Shown one piece after another: positions 623 to 49,659 of a DNA stretch of 64,000 nt. Below the pieces are notes generated by a model. It was not told the origin of the DNA. It worked only from the letters and a program-made list of their open reading frames with translations, and searched no databases. Where the stretch lies: the NCBI GenBank assembly GCA_973895155.1, contig OZ316895.1, positions 20,846,803-20,910,802 on the forward strand. The letters run 5' to 3'. The translations under genes and the position numbers were made by a program. This DNA comes from Marsupella aquatica (taxonomy: Eukaryota > Plantae > Marchantiophyta). Numbering within the stretch: position 1 is the first letter of the stretch; every line of letters starts with the position of its first letter.

Positions 623-2119
623 TCATTTCCTACGATCATGTAATAGTTCGGCATTGTCGTCGTCATCGACAAGGGGCAGGAGAACGATCTTGTCATCGCG
701 CGTCAGCATCGTTAATAACATTCTTATTTCTGAATATGCCATCACTGCAACTGCTCGGAAGGAGTTTGCCACTTTCTTGGTCAAACTCTTTACTGTCTTT
801 GAGGTGATACTGGCTACTTCCCCTTTAGCTGTAACCCAGGAAAACCTTCCAATGTCGCAAAAAACCTCGTACCGCTCATGACGAGCGAGCTCGTCTTCCA
901 AGGCTTTCAGAGACTGTGCTCTACTTTCCTGCAGTACTTCCTGCAGTTCGACTCCACCCTCCTCATCATCCATTCCGCTCAAAAAGTCCACCGGTACAAA
1001 ACTCTGGCAGCCAGTGAAAGAACTCTCCAAATACTCTCTGTTTTCATCGATCCAGTTCGAGTCTGCGCCGGTAATCACAACAGTGAACTGGTACCTGATG
1101 TTCTCCCCAAAAAGTAAGAGGAAAAACTGCCAGAGTCTCTGCTCTAGCTGATCAATTTTATCCTTCTTCAATACATATAGGTAGTGGGAATAGATTCCCT
1201 CGACCATCCGCACGTATTTCTTTAGCCTCCTTTGGGCCACGTCCGAAGTTGTAGTGCTGAGGTCACTACTGGGCTCTCCAAAGCCTGGAGTGTCTACAAC
1301 ATACCATCCCCTCCCTTCCCCGTGAACGACTCTCTTAGTAGCTCCTCTGATACTTGAGCTAATGCGGAAGGGGTTGGTTCCACAAGGGTCGTCGAGTTCT
1401 CCTGAGATGAGCATTCGAGCGACGGTTGACTTCCCACTGCCTGCCCTCCCGAACAAGATCACACTCTCAGGGCCCCAAGGCCCGAATGTTGTATCTCTCC
1501 TTGTCACCTCTTTGAGGAGAAACGGCGTCATGAATCTCCCGGGATTATATCCCATTACGCTGGCAGGCTCCGGTACTCCATTCCTCGACAAGTTCGCCAA
1601 CACTACATTGTCTGGAGGGATTCCCTCCTTTACGAGAACATCCTTCATCTCGCACCTCTGAAACTGCATCTGAGGGGAGTTCTGGGAGCTCACGAGCATA
1701 ATTTTCGCCTCTTTGTGCTCCTTGAAAATGTACGCCAGCAGGGGCAGCCAGCTGACAAGACGATGAGGGTACTGACTTTCATTGAAGCCGTCGATAATGA
1801 AGTCTGCGGGACGGGAAGAGTTGACGACCCCCACCAACACAACTCTTCTGCCGAACAGCCTCCTAAGCGAGTTCACGGAAATCCATTTCCTCGCATATTT
1901 CGACCGATCTAGATCCTCAAAATAAGTGCTTTGAAAGGGCACGGTATCGATCAGGACTGGACATGTCGGATCCGCTTCCGTGGCAAATACCCGAACCCCA
2001 GCCATGGACGTCTCCACTTGCGTAGCACGCAGACCTCCGGCAATGAGGTCGACGACGGCGGTTTTGCACTCCGTCTTACTGCCCATCACCAAATACACCG
2101 GAGCAGCCTCACATTCCAT
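623..2119 (-). CDS. AIG1/IAN (GIMAP)-like P-loop GTPase, intronless, with degenerate N-terminal GTPase-like domain (paralogue A)
   Basis: Uninterrupted ORF (track 623..2200 starts at TTG; first ATG at 2119, ~498 aa). G1 ILFGRAGSGKST, G2-like SIRGAT, G3 YVVDTPGFGE; hydrophobic C-terminal segment. Clearly alignable with the ORF at 44234-45775. Confidence 0.8.
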   Translation of the reverse strand: MECEAAPVYLVMGSKTECKTAVVDLIAGGLRATQVETSMAGVRVFATEADPTCPVLIDTVPFQSTYFEDLDRSKYARKWISVNSLRRLFGRRVVLVGVVNSSRPADFIIDGFNESQYPHRLVSWLPLLAYIFKEHKEAKIMLVSSQNSPQMQFQRCEMKDVLVKEGIPPDNVVLANLSRNGVPEPASVMGYNPGRFMTPFLLKEVTRRDTTFGPWGPESVILFGRAGSGKSTVARMLISGELDDPCGTNPFRISSSIRGATKRVVHGEGRGWYVVDTPGFGEPSSDLSTTTSDVAQRRLKKYVRMVEGIYSHYLYVLKKDKIDQLEQRLWQFFLLLFGENIRYQFTVVITGADSNWIDENREYLESSFTGCQSFVPVDFLSGMDDEEGGVELQEVLQESRAQSLKALEDELARHERYEVFCDIGRFSWVTAKGEVASITSKTVKSLTKKVANSFRAVAVMAYSEIRMLLTMLTRDDKIVLLPLVDDDDNAELLHDRRK

Positions 2120-7489: not shown

Positions 7490-9542
7490 GTACTTGAGCG
7501 TGAGTCCACTCATGACTTGGGGACCGTGTGTGCTCAACAACTTCTGAAGTGACAACAACCACCAAAGGTGCCTCCACAACTGGAGATACTACAATGACTG
7601 ATGATACTAACTCCTCCTTGATGGTGACCAGCCTCTGCTTGGGAACGTCCACTACGGGCTCTTCCCGTTTGGTGACCAACTCCTTTGCAGGGGTGAACTC
7701 AAGCGGATCAACCACTTCCGTGGCAAGAAAGTTGATGTTAGCTTCTTTGAGTGGGGGTGGTGGCCCCTTCTTCTCTGGTGCTCCGGCTTGTTGAGCCTTG
7801 ATTGCTTCCAAGGTTGGACAGTCTGGTGCAAGATGTCCCTCCCCCTTGCACAATTGACACAACTGGGCAAAATCTCCGTTCCCTTGACGTGTGGGCTCCG
7901 GGCACACGTTAGCATAGTGGCCAGCCACTCTACAATTGTAACAAATAGGGATCTTTCTTACCCCCGGATACGGTGGCCTATTCCCGGGAGTAGCATTGGA
8001 ATAGTTGGCATATGGGGGTGCTCCAGCGTTAGTTGAGATCCCATGAATGCTCCTTGGTCCGGGGTTGAGCGGCTACACACTATACACATTGGCCTCCAGT
8101 GGCTCCTCCATGAAGTATTCGACTGGCCCCTCCGCTGCATAGGAAGAGGTTGAGTAGCTGGCTCCTTCTACGTCCTCCTCCCGTACTTGGAAGACCTTGG
8201 CTGGTTCTCGCGCTGGACACTCCTTCGGGGCATGACCAAACTTCATGCACTTGGTGCACCACACGTTGGCTCTCTCCACTGGAACCTTTCTCCTCTCTGG
8301 CTTGAGACCTGCAAAGTGCACCTTCAACGCTTTCATTTGCTCTGTCAACTCATCATACCTGGCCTCTTGCTCCTTGAGACGTCTTGCCGTAGACAATGGT
8401 GTAACGGCCACCGTGGGTAGCACAACTTCTCGATGAGATGACTTCTTGGCCTTCTTGGACAACTTCTTCTTCCTCTTCTTTCGCTTCTCAGCTTCTGACT
8501 CCGTAGTGTCTGACTCCGTAGTGTCTGACTCCGTAGTGCTCTCAGAGTCCTCAGATTCATCACTACCATCCGACTCAGATTCACTTGATTCCTCACTAGA
8601 GGAACTGTCCACAGGCTTCAACTTCTTTCTTCGGCAGCGCTTGCTTGCACATGGCATTGGCAGCAGTGTATGACTCCGCTGCTGCAATAGACTCAGCCAA
8701 TGTGGTTGGCTTGGCCTGTCGTACAAAGAACCCCATCTTGCTTGGTAGGGCAGCTACAAACCATGCTTGGCGCATAGCATCGTTGGTACGGGCTTGTATC
8801 CGCCGTACTAGCTTCTGGAATCTTTGCAAGAACCTCCGCAGTGACTCTTTCTTCTTCATTCTAAGTTGACCCACCTTCAACAGGGATGTGGCTTCCACTC
8901 CAATAGATCGGAACTCCTTCAAGAATGCTTGCTTGAACAAAGCCCAATCAGCTTTCATGTTGGGTAGCAACGAGATGAACTATGGACCTGCCTCCCCCCT
9001 CATCATTCCAAGAATGATAGTGAGCTTGTGGGCAGATTGTCCATTGGCTTCAACGATCCCTTCAAATTCTTTGATCCATTCGTCTGGGTCATCTTTTGGT
9101 CTTCCCTTGAAGGGTACGTACTGAACACGGGTACGTTGAGCAACAGCCATTGGTGCAGCTGGTCCCCGTATCAACACAGGCGGTAATGGCGTACGTTGGG
9201 CCACTGGTAACGACAATGCTAATAGGTGTGAGATGATTTGTGGCAATGCAGTGAGCTCTGGGATCAGATTTGGCCGTAACTCAGACTGCACCAACACAAA
9301 GGGTTCCCCTTCTTCTAGCACGTGGTCTACGTCTGGCTCTTCGTCGGGACATATGGCCGCGTTGTGTTGAGACCTTTCTTGTGGCACACCAACTTGTTCT
9401 TCCAGCTCCCGTGGCAACCTCCTCTCTTCTGCAAGCCATAATCATTCTTCGGCAGCAACCCCAGAGGGCACTCGGTCTAGCTCAGGCGTACGTGAGTGTT
9501 GGGGGCTTGCCCTTCCTCCCCTTCTTCCTCTCGGCATCCCAT
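7490..9542 (-). pseudogene. gag: Retrotransposon gag pseudogene with three CCHC zinc knuckles
   Basis: FKGRPKDDPDEWIKEFE and WALFKQAFLKEFR...FLQRFQKL (retrotransposon gag core); knuckles CTKCMKFGHAPKEC, CYNCRVAGHYANVC, CQLCKGEGHLAPDC; in-frame TAG at 8980-8982 and frameshifts; no protease/RT/RNaseH/integrase seen. Confidence 0.85.
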
Positions 9543-9756
9543 TGAGACCTGCATGCCAAGCTCACAAAAAACAATATCACCAACAAATCTTCCTCAAACA
9601 TCAACCGTCACAAGTTGCGTTGTGGTTGACGTAAAATAACAGAGTAACCAAGAAAAAACTTCTCACGTATCAACCGTTGCAAGCTGCGTTGTGATTGATA
9701 CACTTGAACTCCAAATAGATGTAGCTCCCCTCCTCCTGCAACCAAACAAGGAGAAG

Positions 9757-9776
9757 GTTCCCCTGCAGCGGCGCCA
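9757..9776 (-). promoter_or_regulatory. Primer-binding site (TGGCGCC type)
   Basis: Minus strand TGGCGCCGCTGCAGGGGAAC, ~20 bp inside the LTR end at 9796 and upstream of gag; resembles the Athila/Tat PBS TGGCGCCGTTGCCGGGGA. Confidence 0.75.
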
Positions 9777-9795
9777 AAAACAAGGACCTCACTTA

Positions 9796-10553
9796 TGTCA
9801 CCTGCTTATCAAACGGTTTACACAACAAATACATATTTACTCCTACTAAAATCGTTTGTTATTGTATGACAAGAACGTGGAGGGACGCTATTAGGATTCT
9901 GTTGCATGTAGGATGAGTATGTTTATTTTTGCTCCCGGAAATGTAGTTTTTGATCAAGTCTACCGACTATTCCCGCTGCTTTTGATCAAGTCCCATGGAC
10001 TACGCCACACACACACTCCTACTGGTCGCTGGTGGAGTGCTGTCACCACCCCCCTACTCACATGGTCGACCAACCCGTGCAAGTATTCCTTAGACACTTC
10101 TTGGGAAAGAACACAAGCGTGAGCCGGAAAAGATAACGCCACACCAAAACTTGAGGAATCAAACCAAATCCATATCTTTTGGCAAAAAGTGGTAACACAT
10201 TGCAAGGACAACCCGGCCTCCTGCCGTCTGCCCAACTCCTGCCTCACTCGGGCAAGCGCTACACCTCTACCTCACTACTCTAGCTCGAATTCCCCTTCTG
10301 GCTATGAGCTAACTTCCCTAACACCAACACTAGATTGAGTTCCCCCCCTCACTACTACGGGGCTCCCCCCCTAAATACTCAAAATAACACACCAAAGCAC
10401 CCCTCACGGGGTCACAAGGATGGCGGCTACCCTAGCGGCGCCGCTAAAACCTTCACAAAATAAAGCCCTAATCCTAAATCATGCGGCACACACATGCAAC
10501 TAAAACCCTAATCTAACAATGGGACCGACGGTGCCTTCGACGGCGCCCCAACA
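9796..10553 (-). repeat. 5' LTR (minimal extent; may run to 14010)
   Basis: Starts TGTCACC, first 140 bp repeated at 7349; candidate other end ...GGCGCCCCAACA at 10553. Confidence 0.55.
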
Positions 10554-10906
10554 TCACTTCGTGAACCCGGGCGTGAACTGCAAAAAATGTAAGGGACCTC
10601 ACAATTTCCAAAACTAGGTTCCACTCCGATTGCACCTCTGAGCTCAACCCTGGGTAGGCCTACTCCCCCTGATCATGAATCACAAAACCGCTCTCAAAAC
10701 GAACGCCAAACGACCAAGTTATGGTCATTTTAGTTTCACGTACTTATCAACTTCGCCGGACCCTAACTTACTCATCCTGGCTCCGTTTGAGGAGCGCCGC
10801 CTCTTGTTGGAATCAGCTCCGCGAGCTCTTTCCAACAAGCCCGTGAGTGCACCCTTCCAAAAAATTTCAAAATCCAGAGGTTGTACGACCAAGTCCGTAC
10901 GGCTAC

Positions 10907-12776
10907 CTAGTCCTCATCCTCCTCCTCACTCACGGTGCCATGGCTTGAGCCCCGTGAGTTGGTCTCTTCATCGCTCTCAATTGGAGTGGAGACTACTCCG
11001 CTTCTCTTCTTCTTCACAGGTGTACTCCTCCCGCTAGTGCTTCCTTGCTTCCTCAATGCTGCCAAGGCTTGCCAAGCCCTGACATAGCCCTCACCGATGG
11101 TATCCTTCCACAATGTAGCCTCCTCTCCAGATTGCAACTCCAACGGTAAAAGCTGCCCGGTGGCCATGGGAGTCCCTGGTGTCACAGATCTGGACGGCAT
11201 CCCTGGGGTTCCTGTATTGACCTGGGCCTCCCGTAACAACTTACGTACCTCCTTGAGCTTTTCCTCCAAGCTCTTATTCTTCTCCTGATTCTTCTTGGCT
11301 GCTTCCAATAGGGGACCGTACTTCTCACTTACTTCCTTCACCACCATCTCAATGGCCTTGGAGACCAGGTCAAGGGAAAGCGTGGAGCTAGGTGGGCAGG
11401 GACTTTTCCGCTTCCCCAGACTCAAGGCCTCACTCCTTTTGGCCCTAGTCTCAAAGATCCCCACCTGACTCCGTAGTTCTGCAATCTGGCCTCTTCACCT
11501 TTCCACTTCTCCCGTGTCCCACTTCTCTTTGGCCAATGCTTCTCTCAGCACTCCAACTTCCTCCGCTTCTTTGGCCTTAGTAGACAGGGCCCCCCTCAAG
11601 TGAGAAATCTCCACTTGAGCCGCCTGGAGCAGCTTGGCCTTCTCTTGTATGGCCTCCTCCTTAGCTTTTATCACCTCCTTCATCGACGTGGCACCCTGCT
11701 GCAATGTTTCCACCCTTGCGTTGGCCTGTTTGAGCGCATCTCTCAATGTGTGGGCTAGCTTGAGCCCCTCATGGGCCCCTTCACAAAAATCCCGTAATTC
11801 CGCCAAGTAGACCTCTGGAATGTCATAGGCAAGGGGCTCCTTCAGGTTCCCCACCAAAGATTCCAGCCACTCCAATGTGTACTCCTCATCCTGGATGTCT
11901 TCCTCCACTTGACTGTGTCCTATTCCTGCTGACACTGCTGACACCTCCATGAGTTTCCCCAAGATGGTAGTGGCAATGCTGCGGATTTCCGTGGTAAGGG
12001 ATGACCCAGCTTCTTCGGGCCCCGGGGAGGTAATCAATCCTTCTGCCGTGGCCAACAAAAATGACCCCATCAAATGCAAAGCTCCCCCTGGTTTCAGACT
12101 CTTGGGTTCAACAGCCAATAGCCTTGTCAATCCGTAATACCACCATCCGTAAGCATGGGCTGGATATTTCCGAATATCCAGAGTGATTATGAAATGTTCC
12201 CCATTCACTACCCCGGATTGCACATTACCGAGGACCCGTTGATGAACCTTGGCCAGAAATTCCTTGTGCGCTGCATCCTTGATGGCCGAGAGGTGAATGG
12301 CCGTGGTGGAGGTAGGATTGTTCACCCAGCATGCCACCATTGTCAACGTGAGATCCCTGACAATGTTCCGGGGGGTGAATGAGAACTGCTGGTTCTCCAA
12401 AAACAACAGCTTAGCCAATTCGGCATGAGGTACCAAACGCTGAATACATGCGAAATAAATCCCCTCCGTGCGCAATTCCATTCCAGCCTCCAAGTCCCAA
12501 CTCTTCCCTAGAGGGATTCTAATCTACTCTCATGAAGTCGGTGAGCCCGGTGGCCTGGAATATAGCCTTGCAATCCTCCATCACCTTGGCAGAGGTCTTG
12601 GGATAAATTTGACGGAAAACCTTCCTCATAACCGGTGCTAGACTTGCTGCCGGTCTAGTGCTCATTGCCGCTCTTCTATCTCCTCCCTCCTCCTCAATTA
12701 GTGTCGCAATGTACTCACGGTAAGCGGCTTTGTATCTACAAATGCGCGCTGCGCTGAACTCAGGCTGATCAAGCAT
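10907..12776 (-). pseudogene. Retrotransposon accessory ORF (~620 aa if repaired) with long C-terminal coiled coil
   Basis: ORFs 11495..12493 and 10907..11464 share a frame and are separated by a single TGA; 12519..12776 joins by a frameshift; heptad-rich LRDALKQANARVETLQQ...LEEKLKEVRKLLREAQ; same strand as gag. Confidence 0.6.
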
Positions 12777-22348: not shown

Positions 22349-23599
22349 TTAGCCATCTCCATTGCATCCACTTACAGGGGATTTTGGCTCAATCTTGACC
22401 TTAAAAAGGCTCTTTCTTAAGAGTGTTGTGCGGCCTTTAAATTTGCTCCTTTTCCCTGCATCAATATACACTCGTGCAGGTTCTATCTCTTCATCATCAG
22501 ATAAAACAATTATGTCAGTATTTGTCATCTTCTCCTTTCCTTTCTTAGACCCTGAAGAATGCTCTGCAGCCAATGCATCAATAGTCTCCAAATAATTACA
22601 GTTAGGAAATGGCTGCCTGTCTGCCAATGATACAAATTTGCCCAGAGAATCACCAAATGTCACTCCCTTCTCAGGCACCTTGATTTCTGCAAACATATAA
22701 TCAAAACAAACAGATTTTGATTCCACCTTGGATTTCTTGAGAGAACTCTTTGTTGGAGATCCCTCAATCACTGTGCTCAGTTCAGGTACATCATCATCAA
22801 CTGATTCAGAATAATATCTGCCACAACCACCACTCCAAGCTTTTCTAAGAAAAACTTCTTCAACATCAGTTTTGCATACATTGATAGGATCAATAATACA
22901 CTTCCAAAGACAAGTCATTCTCTTCCTATCCATTCCTTGTCCATTTAAAGGAATAATCCAACTTGCAGCAGGCATAAAGATCCCAGATTTCACCATCTCT
23001 GTTAATGTTGAAATGAATGTTGCATGCAGAGGTCTCTGTGACCTGTATTTGTGCCACACATACATTATGTCAGCAACATTCTTGTTTGTGAGGGTTACTC
23101 TCGACTTCAGATCTGCTCTGCCAAAAATAGAATGTAACTGTTTTCCTGCAATCACTTCTTCATCAGTAATGTTAAACAATGCTTGCTCAAAATGGGTAGC
23201 CCCTAAATCTTTCAAACAATAACCAATCATTCCTTTCCAAGTATGTAATTGTCTATTAGTCAAACATTTACACATAACTTTACCAACAGGATTCATATTC
23301 TTGACCCCATGCCAACCCATATACTTTCTCACAAGAAAACCAAAAGACCTGGCGGATTTTGTTCTGGCTCTCACAACCATCTGAAAATGGAGATGATTCT
23401 CCAGTTCTCCCCTCTCAAGTCCAATCACACCTGCCACACAATGATCAAGCATGAGACTATGGAGCTTGTGAATTTCATCCTTATGAACATCAGAACCCAG
23501 ATATCCCACAGTGATACTCAATTCAAAAACACTGTCAACTAGAGAGGCTTCCTCCTTATCCTGCACAGAAAGTCTTGCTTTTCGCTTTAAAGAAGCCAT
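22349..23599 (-). CDS. HUH endonuclease / Rep-type transposase (Replitron-like), 416 aa
   Basis: Motif I-like FELSITV, motif II GLERGELENHLHFQ (H69-L-H71), motif III GMIGYCLKD (single Tyr127, Lys130); no Walker A/B or helicase motifs; low-complexity K/S/E-rich C-terminus. Confidence 0.85.
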   Translation of the reverse strand: MASLKRKARLSVQDKEEASLVDSVFELSITVGYLGSDVHKDEIHKLHSLMLDHCVAGVIGLERGELENHLHFQMVVRARTKSARSFGFLVRKYMGWHGVKNMNPVGKVMCKCLTNRQLHTWKGMIGYCLKDLGATHFEQALFNITDEEVIAGKQLHSIFGRADLKSRVTLTNKNVADIMYVWHKYRSQRPLHATFISTLTEMVKSGIFMPAASWIIPLNGQGMDRKRMTCLWKCIIDPINVCKTDVEEVFLRKAWSGGCGRYYSESVDDDVPELSTVIEGSPTKSSLKKSKVESKSVCFDYMFAEIKVPEKGVTFGDSLGKFVSLADRQPFPNCNYLETIDALAAEHSSGSKKGKEKMTNTDIIVLSDDEEIEPARVYIDAGKRSKFKGRTTLLRKSLFKVKIEPKSPVSGCNGDG

Positions 23600-28789: not shown

Positions 28790-31700
28790 CTAATGAAGTG
28801 TGGGAGGTTGATAGTAAGACACAATAGTGTAAATTGTTTGCAAGCTTGTGACCCCGAGCAGCATGACTCCTGCCGCCCAGGAGGCCACAACCCATGGGCG
28901 CTTGAAGTACCTGGCTCTGAACTCGGCGTACAACTGATGCTTCCTGTTTTTGCAGCGAGAAGTGAGCCGACTGAGCATGTCTACCCACTGCGCGTCCGGG
29001 TAGACCGAGAAGCCCTTGCAGAGCGTGTTCCACATCACGCACACCTCGCCGTTGCTCCCGACGCAGCTTATGATGATATCATCTTTTTGCAGCAGCTTCA
29101 CATCCTTCTTCGACTGGATCAGTTTTTCCATCAGAATCAGGAACGAGGTCACGGTGAACAGCCGAGGCCCCACTCTAGGGCGGTATGGATATTGGTGGCA
29201 GGACACCATCTCGAACACGGCCAGATTCCGAAGCAGGGACTCGGTTTGATCGGAGATGCAGAGCTTGGGGAGGTGTAGCACTGCCCCGCCCCGAAAGGTG
29301 TCGACGAATTTAGTCTGGTGAATGAATGCGCAGCCCTCTGGACGTTGTGCGTGATTGACCATCCAAAGGAAAACATGAGAAACCACATGAGAAATACTGT
29401 TTGTGTTCGAATGAATGATTGATTGTGCTGGAATTCATAACTGCATCATGACTGTCATCCACAGCAGCACACCCCCAAATTGAACCTCGAGTACACATGG
29501 GGACTCACTTCAACTTCCAGCAGAGTGGCACGAGTTGCTAGACAGGAGAGGAACCCGACGAGCGAACTCAATTTTCTTTGCATTGGTTATGGAGCAATCC
29601 GCCGATTGAGACCATGAGAAGGAAATTGAGTTTGCTCGTCATATTGCTCCAACAGAAGCATCCAAGTAGCGTTTTTGGCCCCCGGGCAGCAAACATGCAG
29701 TTGTACATTGTTTAGAACAAGGTTTGTTTACGTCTTTGCTATATCACGAATTACGAACACCAGCAAGCAAACCCTGTGGCGGACCAGGTAGCGAACAGAA
29801 ACAGCATCAACCTGCAAAACAATGGCTGATTGACAAATCACAGGGAGAAACAGAACCCTAAAAAAAGAAAACTAAACTGGAAAACAATCATGGCTGATTG
29901 ACAAATCACAGGGAGAAACAGAACCCTAAAAAAAGAAAACTAAACTGGAAAACTTTGGAGACAAAGAAATTCACTCATCAGAGCTGCTTATTTCACAGTA
30001 ATAGAAACCAGTGATTCATATAGTCAAACGAAAGGCTAGAATGAAGATCAACACAAACAAAAGCAAAGGAAGATGATTCAGAAAGCTCCAAGAATACATG
30101 CTGCGTGTTCTTTTCTAATTCTAAGTTCATTTCGGCTCTATTTCTGGTGGAAACGAGCATATTAAGAGCATGAAGTCTGTTCTTCTCCTCCTGCATTTCT
30201 CGCTGCGTACATCTACTCCAGTTACTACTCTGTTGAGCTGTAGATCTCATACATCCATGTAAGACCTCGTCTTAAACTGTACTACTTGTGGATCCTGTCT
30301 CTCATAGTCATTAAAAGCTTCAAGAAGGATTTAGTAAAATTTCATTCTGATTGTTAGGCCAAAAGATTCTCCATTTCCTCTACGGATCTCTGTTTCCAAA
30401 GTTGAACTTATCCAGAACCAGCTGGTAGTTTGAAACGAACAGCAAACCTTTTCCAGAGAAAGCTAGAGACTATATTAACCAACTTTTAATGATTTCGTAG
30501 AGGTTAGTCTCTATAAACATTAGAGCGGTTCACGCTTGGCAACTGTATCTGTTCGATATAGTTGTTAATTCAGAACAAAATTCTATACGGTCTGGTCAAT
30601 GGTGAATTTCGCAATGAACACATATTTGTTTAGAATGCTTGGCGTGGGCCAGACTTATCCACATTTAGTCAAGGGCAAACAACTGGCAAATGGATGCAGG
30701 ACGTTGAACGAAATAGTCCAGCATTTATGCCAAAGAAATACACACTTTCTAATGGATAGCTGAAGGAAGACGTGAGGTGACCTGACCTGAATTGAGGCGT
30801 ATTCCAACGTTCCGCAGCTGAACAGCAGATGGGATTGTATTTGCAGGAGCCATGGCCTTCTCGTCGGCGAGAGGAGGGGGTTTATGGACATCACCCGGCG
30901 GACAGTAGCCCACAATGTAGTGCAAGCAATCCAGAAGATGATCACACTCCAGGAACCACTTGTCTTCGAGAGCTTTAGACACCGCACTCTCACCTTCGGA
31001 ACCACTCTGGAAAAGCTGTAGGTATCGATCTGTCACAACCCTCCTCAACAGATTGTTAAACAAATGATCAGCCTCTTCCTTCTTCCGGTTCTCCACGTCC
31101 GGCAACAACCTCCACACCTTGGCGAGTATGTGAAGGGAAATCTGATTCTCAAGCAAGAAGACATCGCGCCAAATTGTCGATCGTGACTCCGCGAGAAGCC
31201 TGTATAGTGCCTGCGTATGGAGTTCCCAGTAGAGTTTTTCTGGAAGAGGATGAGCATTTGTCTGGTACGAATATCTTAAAAATAGGACCAGAAAGAGCGC
31301 ATCCAGAGCCAGGAAGGTCTTCAAGATAATGGGATTCACTGGACTGGTGTCAATCTCATACCATCTGTAGGCCGTTCTCACGTCCGTTTCCAACTCCAGA
31401 TCCTCAATGAATTGGTCCCACGTATAGGCCAGGTCTGCGCAGCAATCATCAGCTAGGTCCGCTGCTAGGTTGGGATTCGAGTGGCAGATCTCGGTTTTCC
31501 GTTCATAGGCAGGAGAAATTGCATCCAGTCGGGGAAATCTCTCATCAGGTTTATTTTGGCAGCCAGAAAGAGGAGTAGCAGCATTTTTCCATTTCAGAAA
31601 AAAGCGCTGAAACTCTGCTTTGTAGTGCTCGATCCCGGGCTCCAATCTATTAGTATTCAAGCCGAGTGTCACCGTTTGCGCGTTGTACATGCACGGCTTG

Positions 31701-31816
31701 ACTCGTTTGAGATAGGGTGGGACCGCGAATGTTTCTTCGTTCCGGTATGGAGGAGGATGCCTTGTGGCTAAGCGCTTCTCTAGTCGAGCATATTTATCAT
31801 CCCAACTTGAAGACAT
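28790..31816 (-). CDS. DUF247 (UPF0481)-family plant protein, two exons: 31816..30787 and 29337..28790 (~525 aa)
   Basis: Motifs FAVPPYLK..YNAQTVTLG, FLALDALFLVLFL, IWRDVFLLENQI, HLLDCLH, IPSAVQLRNVGIRL, LHLPKLCISDQTESLLRNLAVFE, LIQSKKDVKLL, YFKRPW plus C-terminal TM helix; GT donor 30786 and AG acceptor 29339-29338 give an in-frame phase-1 join. Confidence 0.88.
29816..29952. repeat. ~70-bp tandem duplication in the DUF247 intron
   Basis: ATGGCTGATTGACAAATCACAGGGAGAAACAGAACCCTAAAAAAAGAAAACTAAACTGGAAAAC twice. Confidence 0.9.
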
Positions 31817-44233: not shown

Positions 44234-45775
44234 TCAGTCACCTAGAGTTTCTAAGGGCAAGAGAAGACATCCGTCTTCAGGCGAGAGTAGAATGGACAGT
44301 CGATGCAGCCCAGTAGAGACCCTGTACGCCCCAATTCTCACTAGATTGAGTGCCCACTGAATTCCGACTGTCATTGCCTGCAAGTGGAACACGGCTTCGG
44401 ACATTACATCCAGCTCAGTCATCTTGGACCACTCTCCAAAATGACACCAAGTGTCGGATCGCTGGAGACTCATGAGACCACACTCTAGCTCCTTGAGAGA
44501 GTCCTCTCTGACCTGCTGATCCTCCATCTCCAATTCCTCATCCTCTTCGTGCACCTCAGGGAAGTCTGCGCTGAGGAAACTCTCACAGCCGAAGAAACAC
44601 TTCTTTAAGTGGTCGATGTTCTCAGGCAGCCAATTTTTGTCAGCGACGTCCATGACTACTACCGTAAAATGGTCCTTGATGGATTCTCCAAATAGTGCCA
44701 CAAAGAATGTCCAGAGAAGCGCCTCGAGCTTGTCTATTCTGCCCTTCTTGACGACATATATGTAATGTGTGTAGATCCCTCCGATCATCTGTACATACCT
44801 CTTGATCTTCCTCTCTCCTTCCTCTGATGTTATGGAGCCATCCCTCAGTTCTCCGAAGCCCGGTGTATCCACCACATACCACCCTCTCCCTTCCCCATAC
44901 TGGACGCTTGTGGTTTCCCCTCTGATGCTGGAGCTAGATTTGAGCTGTTTGGAATTGGGATCAAGTCGTCCCAAGGTGAGCATCTGTGCAAGAGTGGACT
45001 TCCCACTCCCGGACCTCCCAAACAAAATCACTCTTTCAGCGACCCATGGCCCTAGCCTTGTGATATTTCTGGCATTCGTCGGCATATCTCTGATCATGTA
45101 GAAGGTCGCTTCATCGGTAGCCTTAACCGTAATATTCTTTGACTTCTCCCGTCTTTCCAGTCGGAAGATGTTTCTAACAGCTGAGTTGACGATATCAGTG
45201 AACGAGTCTCTGTCCCTCAAATCCGCATAACTGACATTGTTCGTTGAGAACTTGTGTCGCTCGATGAAGTTTGCCATCCGCCTCCTCTCATTGAGCGCTT
45301 CATCGTCGTCAAACTTGTCGTCTCCGTTCACTGCCACGAAAATGATGGACTGCTTGTGCTCCGGGAAAATGAAGTTGCCCAAGAAGTGCAACCAGGAATA
45401 GACTTGTAGGTAGAAATTTGTCTCTTCGGTCTTGGACTCCTCGGCGATAAGGGCGTCGTCACCTGCGATCACGCAAACTACGCATACCCGTCTCCGAAGC
45501 ATCCGCCGGAGGGCGTTGTCTGCAATCCAGCGCTTAACTTCATGGAAAACTTGCTCTCCGATATAATGTTTGGAGAAGGGGACAGTGTCAACAACCAAAA
45601 GCTCCGACTTTCTCGTGAAATTCCGAACCCCCGACTTTGAAACATCGACTTCCCAGGCTCCAACAGCTTCAGCTAAAGCATCTGCCACCCGAGATTTGCT
45701 TCGTGAGTCCGTTCCAACCACCAAAATTACCCCTTCGTCGTTACTGTTTCTCCCGCTGTTGCTCTGCATCGCCAT
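44234..45775 (-). CDS. AIG1/IAN (GIMAP)-like P-loop GTPase, intronless, with degenerate N-terminal GTPase-like domain (paralogue B)
   Basis: ORF 44234..45817 (TTG start; first ATG 45775, ~513 aa). G1 ILFGRSGSGKST, SIRGET, G3 YVVDTPGFGE; shares GEGRGWYVVDTPGFGE exactly with paralogue A. Confidence 0.82.
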   Translation of the reverse strand: MAMQSNSGRNSNDEGVILVVGTDSRSKSRVADALAEAVGAWEVDVSKSGVRNFTRKSELLVVDTVPFSKHYIGEQVFHEVKRWIADNALRRMLRRRVCVVCVIAGDDALIAEESKTEETNFYLQVYSWLHFLGNFIFPEHKQSIIFVAVNGDDKFDDDEALNERRRMANFIERHKFSTNNVSYADLRDRDSFTDIVNSAVRNIFRLERREKSKNITVKATDEATFYMIRDMPTNARNITRLGPWVAERVILFGRSGSGKSTLAQMLTLGRLDPNSKQLKSSSSIRGETTSVQYGEGRGWYVVDTPGFGELRDGSITSEEGERKIKRYVQMIGGIYTHYIYVVKKGRIDKLEALLWTFFVALFGESIKDHFTVVVMDVADKNWLPENIDHLKKCFFGCESFLSADFPEVHEEDEELEMEDQQVREDSLKELECGLMSLQRSDTWCHFGEWSKMTELDVMSEAVFHLQAMTVGIQWALNLVRIGAYRVSTGLHRLSILLSPEDGCLLLPLETLGD

Positions 45776-48978: not shown

Positions 48979-49659
48979 TCATCTCCGCAGCCGTTGTAGG
49001 GCTTCCTTGGCATCAGGAGACTTGGGATCCAGCAAGACTGCATTGTTGAATGCCTCGATTGCCTTGTCCAAGTTGCCATCCTTCTCATAAGCTTCACCTA
49101 ACAAGACTTGTAACCGGGGATTCTTGGGAGTGAGGGAAACTGATTCGTTCAAATCTAGCAAGGCTTCCTGGATCAACCCACTTTCAGATTCTAAGGCGGC
49201 CTTCTTGACCAAGGTGCTCGAACGTTCCGGTACAGTGAGGCTTTTCGGTCTCGAGAGCGCCTGGGCCAGCTCTTTAATGGCTGCCCCTGATTTTCCCACA
49301 ACCTCAAGAGCCAGAGACTTCACGATGTGGTAAGCAGCGTCATTAGGGTCAACCCCAATTGCGAGGTTCGCCTCCATAATAGCTTGCTCTGCCAAGACTT
49401 TAGCCTGGGTTGGGCTCTGCCCCTTTCTCTGTGCCTCGGCCAGTAAAGAGGCAGCCTTGACAAAATAGCGACGTGCTTTCGTTTGTGAGATCCGACGGTT
49501 TCGAATGTACAAGAAACCTGTACCGAGTAATGTGCATGCTACCACTAGGATTGATACATACACAGGAAATCTTTCTGGTAGCGAAAAGTTCTCCAACGAA
49601 AAGTCCTCCAACTGTGGAAATCTTGCTGCTGAGAAGGACTCATCGTCCCCCTCTCCCAT
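48979..49659 (-). CDS. Single-pass membrane TPR-repeat protein (~226 aa)
   Basis: TM helix VYVSILVVACTLLGTGFLYI followed by basic RNRR; TPR consensus AIGVDPNDAAYHIVKSLAL, SVSLTPKNPRLQVLLGEAYEKDGNLDKAIEAFNNAVLLDPKSPDA; first ATG at 49659. Confidence 0.82.
   Translation of the reverse strand: MGEGDDESFSAARFPQLEDFSLENFSLPERFPVYVSILVVACTLLGTGFLYIRNRRISQTKARRYFVKAASLLAEAQRKGQSPTQAKVLAEQAIMEANLAIGVDPNDAAYHIVKSLALEVVGKSGAAIKELAQALSRPKSLTVPERSSTLVKKAALESESGLIQEALLDLNESVSLTPKNPRLQVLLGEAYEKDGNLDKAIEAFNNAVLLDPKSPDAKEALQRLRR

Follow-up and report, generated by a model that had tools for sequence, protein, structure and literature searches.

A predicted pseudoGTPase domain joined to an AIG1-like GTPase domain in a protein family of liverworts and mosses

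The stretch of Marsupella aquatica contig OZ316895.1 analysed here (64,000 nucleotides, hereafter the window) encodes two paralogous proteins, ORF A and ORF B, which lie about 42 kb apart on the same strand and are 35% identical over 505 columns in a BLASTP alignment (Table 1). Pfam recognises an AIG1 domain in the second half of each protein (residues 219-366 of A and 248-376 of B), and in both an unannotated N-terminal domain (NTD) of ~180 aa precedes it. The NTD of A has no match in Pfam or NCBIfam, the N-terminal halves of A and B give no meaningful Pfam match, and no Pfam family was matched by more than one of 18 family NTDs scanned. Neither protein has a clear transmembrane segment (highest 19-residue hydropathy 1.21 in A and 1.26 in B), and a family HMM detected no copy in the window beyond these two. 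We rejected a pseudogene or an assembly artefact as the source of ORF A, as its frame is open, orthologues exist in the leafy liverwort Calypogeia fissa, and contigs X3 and X4 list no indels inside it.

Several other features were observed in the window. A Replitron transposon sits between the two GTPase genes, two consecutive DUF247 parts are probably exons of one gene, and an ORF with TPR repeats lies 3 kb upstream of ORF B. Short matches from other contigs fall on the G1 and G3 coding regions of A, which points to additional paralogues in this organism.

Table 1 Positions in the window of ORF A, ORF B, their parts and other features
Feature	Position	Strand	Remarks
ORF A (P0001)	623-2119	minus	Uninterrupted frame, 498 aa; predicted pseudo-G NTD, AIG1/GIMAP-like G domain and C-terminal helices
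NTD of A, residues 6-186	1562-2104	minus	Predicted G-domain fold with degenerate G motifs
Degenerate P-loop of A, G13-T20 (GSKTECKT)	2060-2083	minus	Spacing as in GxxxxGKS; second Gly replaced
Switch-I remnant of A, AGVRVF (40-45)	1985-2002	minus	Aligns with SIRGAT in the intact domain; Thr of G2 lost
G3 remnant of A, DTVPF (58-62)	1934-1948	minus	G3 Gly lost
NTD signature of A, ARKWISVNSLRR (76-87)	1859-1894	minus	On the switch-II-equivalent helix
AIG1/GIMAP-like G domain of A, about residues 214-415	875-1480	minus	
G motifs of A			G1 224-232, G2 T261, G3 276-279, G4 TGAD 350-353
Conserved-box column 321 of A	1157-1159	minus	Lys; Arg in the other 29 members
C-terminal helices of A, residues 428-472	704-838	minus	Partly amphipathic
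Short matches from other contigs	1270-1315 and 1410-1456		G1 and G3 coding regions; runs X1-X4
ORF B (P0002)	44234-45775	minus	Paralogue of A, 513 aa; architecture as in A
NTD of B	about 45197-45733	minus	
G core of B	about 44555-45049	minus	
Retrotransposon-gag-remnant-like ORFs	8073-12481	minus	Several; CCHC knuckle in 8073-8657; judged by eye
Replitron ORF	22349-23599	minus	416 aa; Replitron HUH endonuclease (E 1e-16) and Replitron C-terminal domains
DUF247 part	30749-31816	minus	Profile 61-248
DUF247 part	28790-29362	minus	Profile 258-399
TPR ORF	48979-49659	minus	226 aa; N-terminal hydrophobic segment and TPR repeats

The C-terminal domains match the AIG1 profile PF04548 with 37.2 and 36.5 bits (cut-off 27; profile positions 2-140 and 2-125 of 212), and a structural search returned GIMAP7 as the best match (Z 16.3, rmsd 3.0, 200 residues), followed by GIMAP4 and Toc33. 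Conservation across the family was counted in an alignment (A2) of 31 rows, 30 of which have a G domain; P0013, P0017, P0018, P0025, P0032 and P0037-P0040 were left out, and the rows include close paralogues and so are not independent. The G domains keep G1-G4 intact, with the G2 Thr in 30/30 and a G4 of the form [ST]xxD/E that ends in Asp in 26 and in Glu in two of the 30. Column 321, aligned to the Arg of the LGRY conserved box of GIMAP7, is Arg in 29/30, including ORF B, and Lys in ORF A alone. GIMAPs are described in the available parts of two studies as dimerising via a conserved interface that controls hydrolysis (PMC9111091, PMC8201404), and the accessible text of a preprint (bioRxiv 10.1101/2024.03.25.586683) describes both Toc and GIMAP proteins as having arginine fingers at the G interface. 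From the intact motifs, and by analogy with these proteins, we infer that the C-terminal domain would bind and hydrolyse GTP and undergo GTP-dependent dimerisation. ORF A, with its Lys at the conserved-box column, may need a partner such as B for activation.

An earlier sequence-only reading of this locus had proposed that a decayed second G domain stands ahead of the intact one, and structure prediction bears this out. AlphaFold2 applied to the NTD of A alone (residues 1-192; pLDDT 81, pTM 0.80) gave strands and helices ordered as in a G domain. Searched against 48,161 representative chains, this model retrieved GTPases or GTPase chains of complexes as 29 of the best 30 matches, where some of the chains of complexes are ones that we take to be GTPases; the best Z was 8.6, Toc33 scored Z 8.0 over 155 residues, and the sole non-GTPase was XOAT1 (Z 7.9). 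When Foldseek's 1000 best entries were compared separately, 49 of the best 50 were G proteins by title, and Arf-type domains scored level with Toc34 (Z 8.6-9.0; Toc34 itself Z 8.6 over 151 residues). Such values are middling (Z 8-9, rmsd 3-4 A, about 140-155 residues aligned), and because Arf-type domains top the matches level with Toc34, the fold does not single out an AIG1 ancestry. Foldseek itself found nothing at E<=0.001 and ranked a uridine phosphorylase first; a nucleoside-phosphorylase fold was nevertheless rejected, as it superposed at rmsd 12-13 with a TM of 0.27 and was absent from the top 50 of the second comparison.

Profile comparison speaks to the origin of the NTD. Over 142 columns, the NTD profile runs collinear with the profile of the G domain of this family (P=0.0015, with an HHalign probability of only 17%), and the alignment puts K[ST], AGVR/SGIRG and DT of the NTD in register with G1, switch I and G3. 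Its score of 27.0 was reached by none of 150 block shuffles (best shuffle 26.2) and the reversed profile scored 13.4. The G-domain HMM gave a best E of 0.017 against the 31 single NTD sequences, the NTD profile found only a chance-level 25-residue match among PDB sequences (E 0.87), and, with residues 1-190 of P0003 (a homologue) as query, an ESM Atlas feature search returned AIG1/MMR_HSR1 clusters at 0.94, a score uncalibrated for protein parts. As the NTD profile aligns end to end with the G domain of the same family, it is very likely, on these profiles and models, that the NTD is a degenerate G domain derived by internal duplication.

PseudoGTPases combine a GTPase fold with missing G motifs; the NTD has the former by prediction, and 31/31 NTDs lack the second Gly of the P-loop, the Thr of G2 and the Gly of G3. 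Neither GxxxxGK[ST] nor DTPG occurs in any of the 31, whereas each occurs in 30/30 G domains, column 17 is Glu/Asp in 19/31, and the family alignment reveals no G4 motif common to the NTDs. Other positions of the nucleotide site are mostly kept, namely Lys19 (24/31), Ser/Thr20 (24/31), Arg43 (29/31), Asp58 (23/31) and Thr59 (30/31). All motifs quoted in the sequence-only reading are present letter for letter in A and B, including DTVPF, but as a shared motif that word is confined to 5/31 members, the conserved part being T59. The strongest conservation lies in an NTD-specific motif, ARxWISxNxLRR, on the helix after G3, which is present in liverwort and moss and whose W79 and L85 are invariant (31/31); a moss-type clade (P0020-P0023) has lost the whole P-loop yet retained WISxxxL. 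In the full-length model, helix 1 of the G domain begins at the Lys, whereas that of the NTD begins three residues ahead of it, at residue 16, as it does in the model of the NTD alone. An extended helix 1 that occludes the phosphate site, as modelled here, is described for p190RhoGAP pG1 in the accessible part of PMC5593906. Because the three residues are gone and helix 1 enters the phosphate cradle, GTP binding by the NTD is predicted to be lost, which would make it a class i pseudoGTPase; a 'dead' NTD and an 'active' G domain are both predictions from sequence.

The family spans liverwort and moss and is wider than the two paralogues in the window. A search with A found 21 relatives and one with the N-terminal 210 residues against 1.84 billion representatives found 10, to which cluster look-ups added members; those named by organism come only from C. 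fissa and Physcomitrium patens, the closest being 72% identical. C. fissa contributes 23 distinct sequences, some of them presumably subgenome copies due to polyploidy, and P. patens contributes PHYPA_003359 and PHYPA_019485. Orthologues of A and B adjoin twice in C. fissa (CAM6102028.1 with CAM6102032.1, and CAM6120870.1 with CAM6120860.1), the two members of each pair being placed on contigs of equal length, where orthology was read from the tree and P0038 was assigned via its cluster with P0010; as the two genes are linked in both species, the linkage is older than their split. Protein searches that scored about 8,000 candidates each gave no matches in vascular plants, hornworts, Marchantia or algae, which is weak evidence of absence because few candidates were scored and known members were missed, one search returning 5 members. 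Pattern scans of limited reach gave no relative among 600 stretches of prokaryote genomes, 312 viral contigs or phages, and among the matches listed from metagenomes there was one locus, at a contig end and with a G domain only (L001, 3923-4249, plus strand). This G domain is 50% identical over 78 residues and has no in-frame NTD upstream, and it may be a single-domain relative. Variant layouts were also seen within the family: P0018 (PHYPA_003359) has two units in tandem, possibly a fused gene model, P0037 has no C-terminal helices, P0028 consists of the NTD only, and P0025 carries a 650-aa extension.

Compared with known systems, A and B most resemble GIMAP7 (PDB 3zjc) and GIMAP4 (3lxx) in their AIG1 Pfam match, G1-G4, conserved-box Arg (Lys in A) and C-terminal helices, but they carry an extra N-terminal degenerate G domain and are only 18% identical to GIMAP7. 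Both of their domains also match Toc33/34 (G domain Z 14.7, NTD Z 8.0-8.6); unlike Toc34 and Toc159, however, they are laid out in tandem and show no clear membrane anchor by hydropathy and no M domain match in Pfam, and Toc membership was rejected on these grounds. EhRabX3, EngA/Der and Miro likewise have two G-fold domains per chain, EhRabX3 in a tandem layout and Miro as a tandem G-domain protein, but these domains are Rab-, Era- or Ras-type rather than AIG1-type, and EngA superposes over the whole chain at an rmsd of about 18. One of the EhRabX3 domains lacks several G motifs, according to the portion of PMC5593906 that was available. GIMAP8 has several AIG1-type G domains per chain, with three sets of GTP-binding motifs described in the accessible sections of PMC4201521, whereas one of the two domains in A and B is motif-less and has its own signature. 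The G fold with degraded motifs that serves as an interaction module is shared with p190RhoGAP pG1/pG2, AAGAB psGD, CENP-M and dynein LIC (PMC5593906, PMC12490416, both in excerpt); those class i pseudoGTPases are Ras-like, come from animals and fungi and have been measured not to bind, whereas the NTD, for which this is predicted only, sits directly on an AIG1-type domain of which it is an apparent duplicate.

Membership of the plant IAN proteins was rejected since, in the parts of a 2026 plant AIG1 survey open to us (PMC12845241), these consist of the AIG1 domain only, whereas A has an extra folded NTD of 180 aa; no IAN sequences were among the relatives returned by the protein searches. The same sections of that survey report seven AIG1 genes in P. 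patens, all assigned to Toc34, Toc159 or IAN, and the present architecture is absent from them. For Pp3c15_7980, a gene of P. patens with an AIG1 domain, the available text of PMC12851517 lists expression in egg cells but not in antheridia, together with a best match in fungi and none in Arabidopsis or Swiss-Prot. Within the searchable literature, subscription journals being mostly outside its reach, we found no description of an NTD joined to an AIG1-like domain, and 'pseudoGTPase' occurred together with AIG1 only in a reference of one work. Tandem G domains and pseudoGTPases are already known kinds, whereas the fusion of a predicted pseudoGTPase to an AIG1-like GTPase, seen here in both liverworts and mosses, appears to be real and undescribed; the sequence-only reading had supposed such a fusion to be new.

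We propose, with a probability of roughly 0.55, that these proteins consist of an intact AIG1/GIMAP-like G domain preceded by a conserved motif-less duplicate that acts as a docking or regulatory module. By analogy with GIMAP and Toc biology, the C-terminal domain, whose sequence keeps the motifs and the Arg described above, would bind GTP and pair with a second molecule via the G interface, which would turn hydrolysis on. The NTD would use its ARxWISxNxLRR helix to pack on the catalytic domain at a distance from the nucleotide site and would serve, independently of nucleotide, for docking or regulation, with a variable surface that is not the same from one paralogue to the next. The pTM of the full-length model of A (0.83) suggests a defined packing of the NTD on the G domain. 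In the structural alignments with Toc33, EngB and LeoA, the matched part of the full model begins at residues 81-84, which faintly suggests that the signature helix sits next to the N-terminal side of the G domain, at the place occupied by the N-terminal extensions of those three proteins, the docking face being read from alignment ranges only.

This proposal presupposes that the NTD is maintained and that it is a G domain, and the alternatives on both counts appear improbable. That the NTD is a remnant decaying neutrally is by far the least likely of the readings considered. Against contigs X3 and X4, the NTD shows 8 nonsynonymous and 6 synonymous differences, a pN/pS of 0.40 that is not significantly below neutral (p=0.08), and the G domain 3 and 9 (pN/pS 0.09), which would suit such decay; yet these numbers are small, some of the differences come from alternative contigs, and the two domains do not differ significantly (Fisher p=0.13). 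Between A and its three closest homologues, moreover, the NTD is nearly as conserved as the G domain (72-77% against 75-79% identity), it has invariant residues common to liverwort and moss, and trees of the two domains have supported clades in common. These comparisons indicate that the NTD is kept by selection, as the sequence-only reading had claimed. The blocks which that reading saw shared between the two NTDs are indeed present in both, but they are islands in a domain that has diverged further than the G domain (28% against 56% identity between A and B; 17-37% against 39-59% between deep paralogues). It is also quite unlikely, if less so than neutral decay, that the NTD is an unrelated alpha/beta domain that is G-like by analogy alone. 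The middling Z scores, the presence of XOAT1 and of high-ranking uridine phosphorylases in the structural lists, and the lack of a sequence-level match to any solved GTPase would be consistent with an unrelated fold; on the other side, both lists are topped almost purely by GTPases, and the registered K[ST], R and DT residues and the Atlas features agree with a G domain.

Two further alternatives concern what the NTD does. It could hold a nucleotide or phosphate ligand without hydrolysis, as a class ii pseudoGTPase or sensor, and relay its state to the catalytic domain, a possibility to which the mostly retained Lys19, Ser/Thr20, Arg43, Asp58 and Thr59 and the unchanged P-loop spacing lend some credit. 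We nonetheless regard it as unlikely given the universal loss of the second P-loop Gly, the frequent acidic residue at column 17, the extended helix 1, the lack of a common G4 motif, and the four members that dispense with the loop while keeping the signature helix. Slightly less probable again is that the NTD acts as an intramolecular pseudo-dimer partner, covering the G interface and keeping the catalytic domain inactive until some trigger moves the NTD aside. An inhibition of GIMAP7 by GIMAP6 in trans, via the G interface, is reported in the available part of PMC9111091, the switch-II-equivalent helix is the most conserved element of the NTD, and the defined packing suggested by the full-length pTM would fit such an arrangement too. 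However, the NTD segment aligned to the conserved box is variable, is placed with low confidence and has no Arg, and the alignment start positions hint, weakly, at the opposite face. Since the NTD is devoid of the arginine-finger box it is unlikely to be a built-in activator, and since that box is kept in the C-terminal domain, dimerisation between molecules is favoured; the earlier suggestion of an intramolecular dimer partner or sensor was therefore not established.

The docking or regulatory reading could be extended to a bryophyte-restricted fourth lineage of plant AIG1 proteins that arose via internal duplication and reached more than 20 copies in a leafy liverwort, with an NTD used for sensing or docking and with A and B forming a GIMAP-like heterodimer in defence or reproduction, which we offer only tentatively. 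A role in immunity or at membranes would be a guess by analogy with IAN and GIMAP proteins. With a predicted dead domain and its likely intact parent in one chain, these proteins allow one to study how a G domain takes on a different task. Control of GIMAP-type GTPases comes from pairing with partners that are themselves silent, and a silent domain fused to the GTPase would build such control in a new way. If the proposal is true, this would be the first pseudoGTPase-GTPase fusion in the AIG1/GIMAP/Toc class that we could find, and it would be testable in Physcomitrium, where knock-outs should be easy because the model moss has two annotated members.
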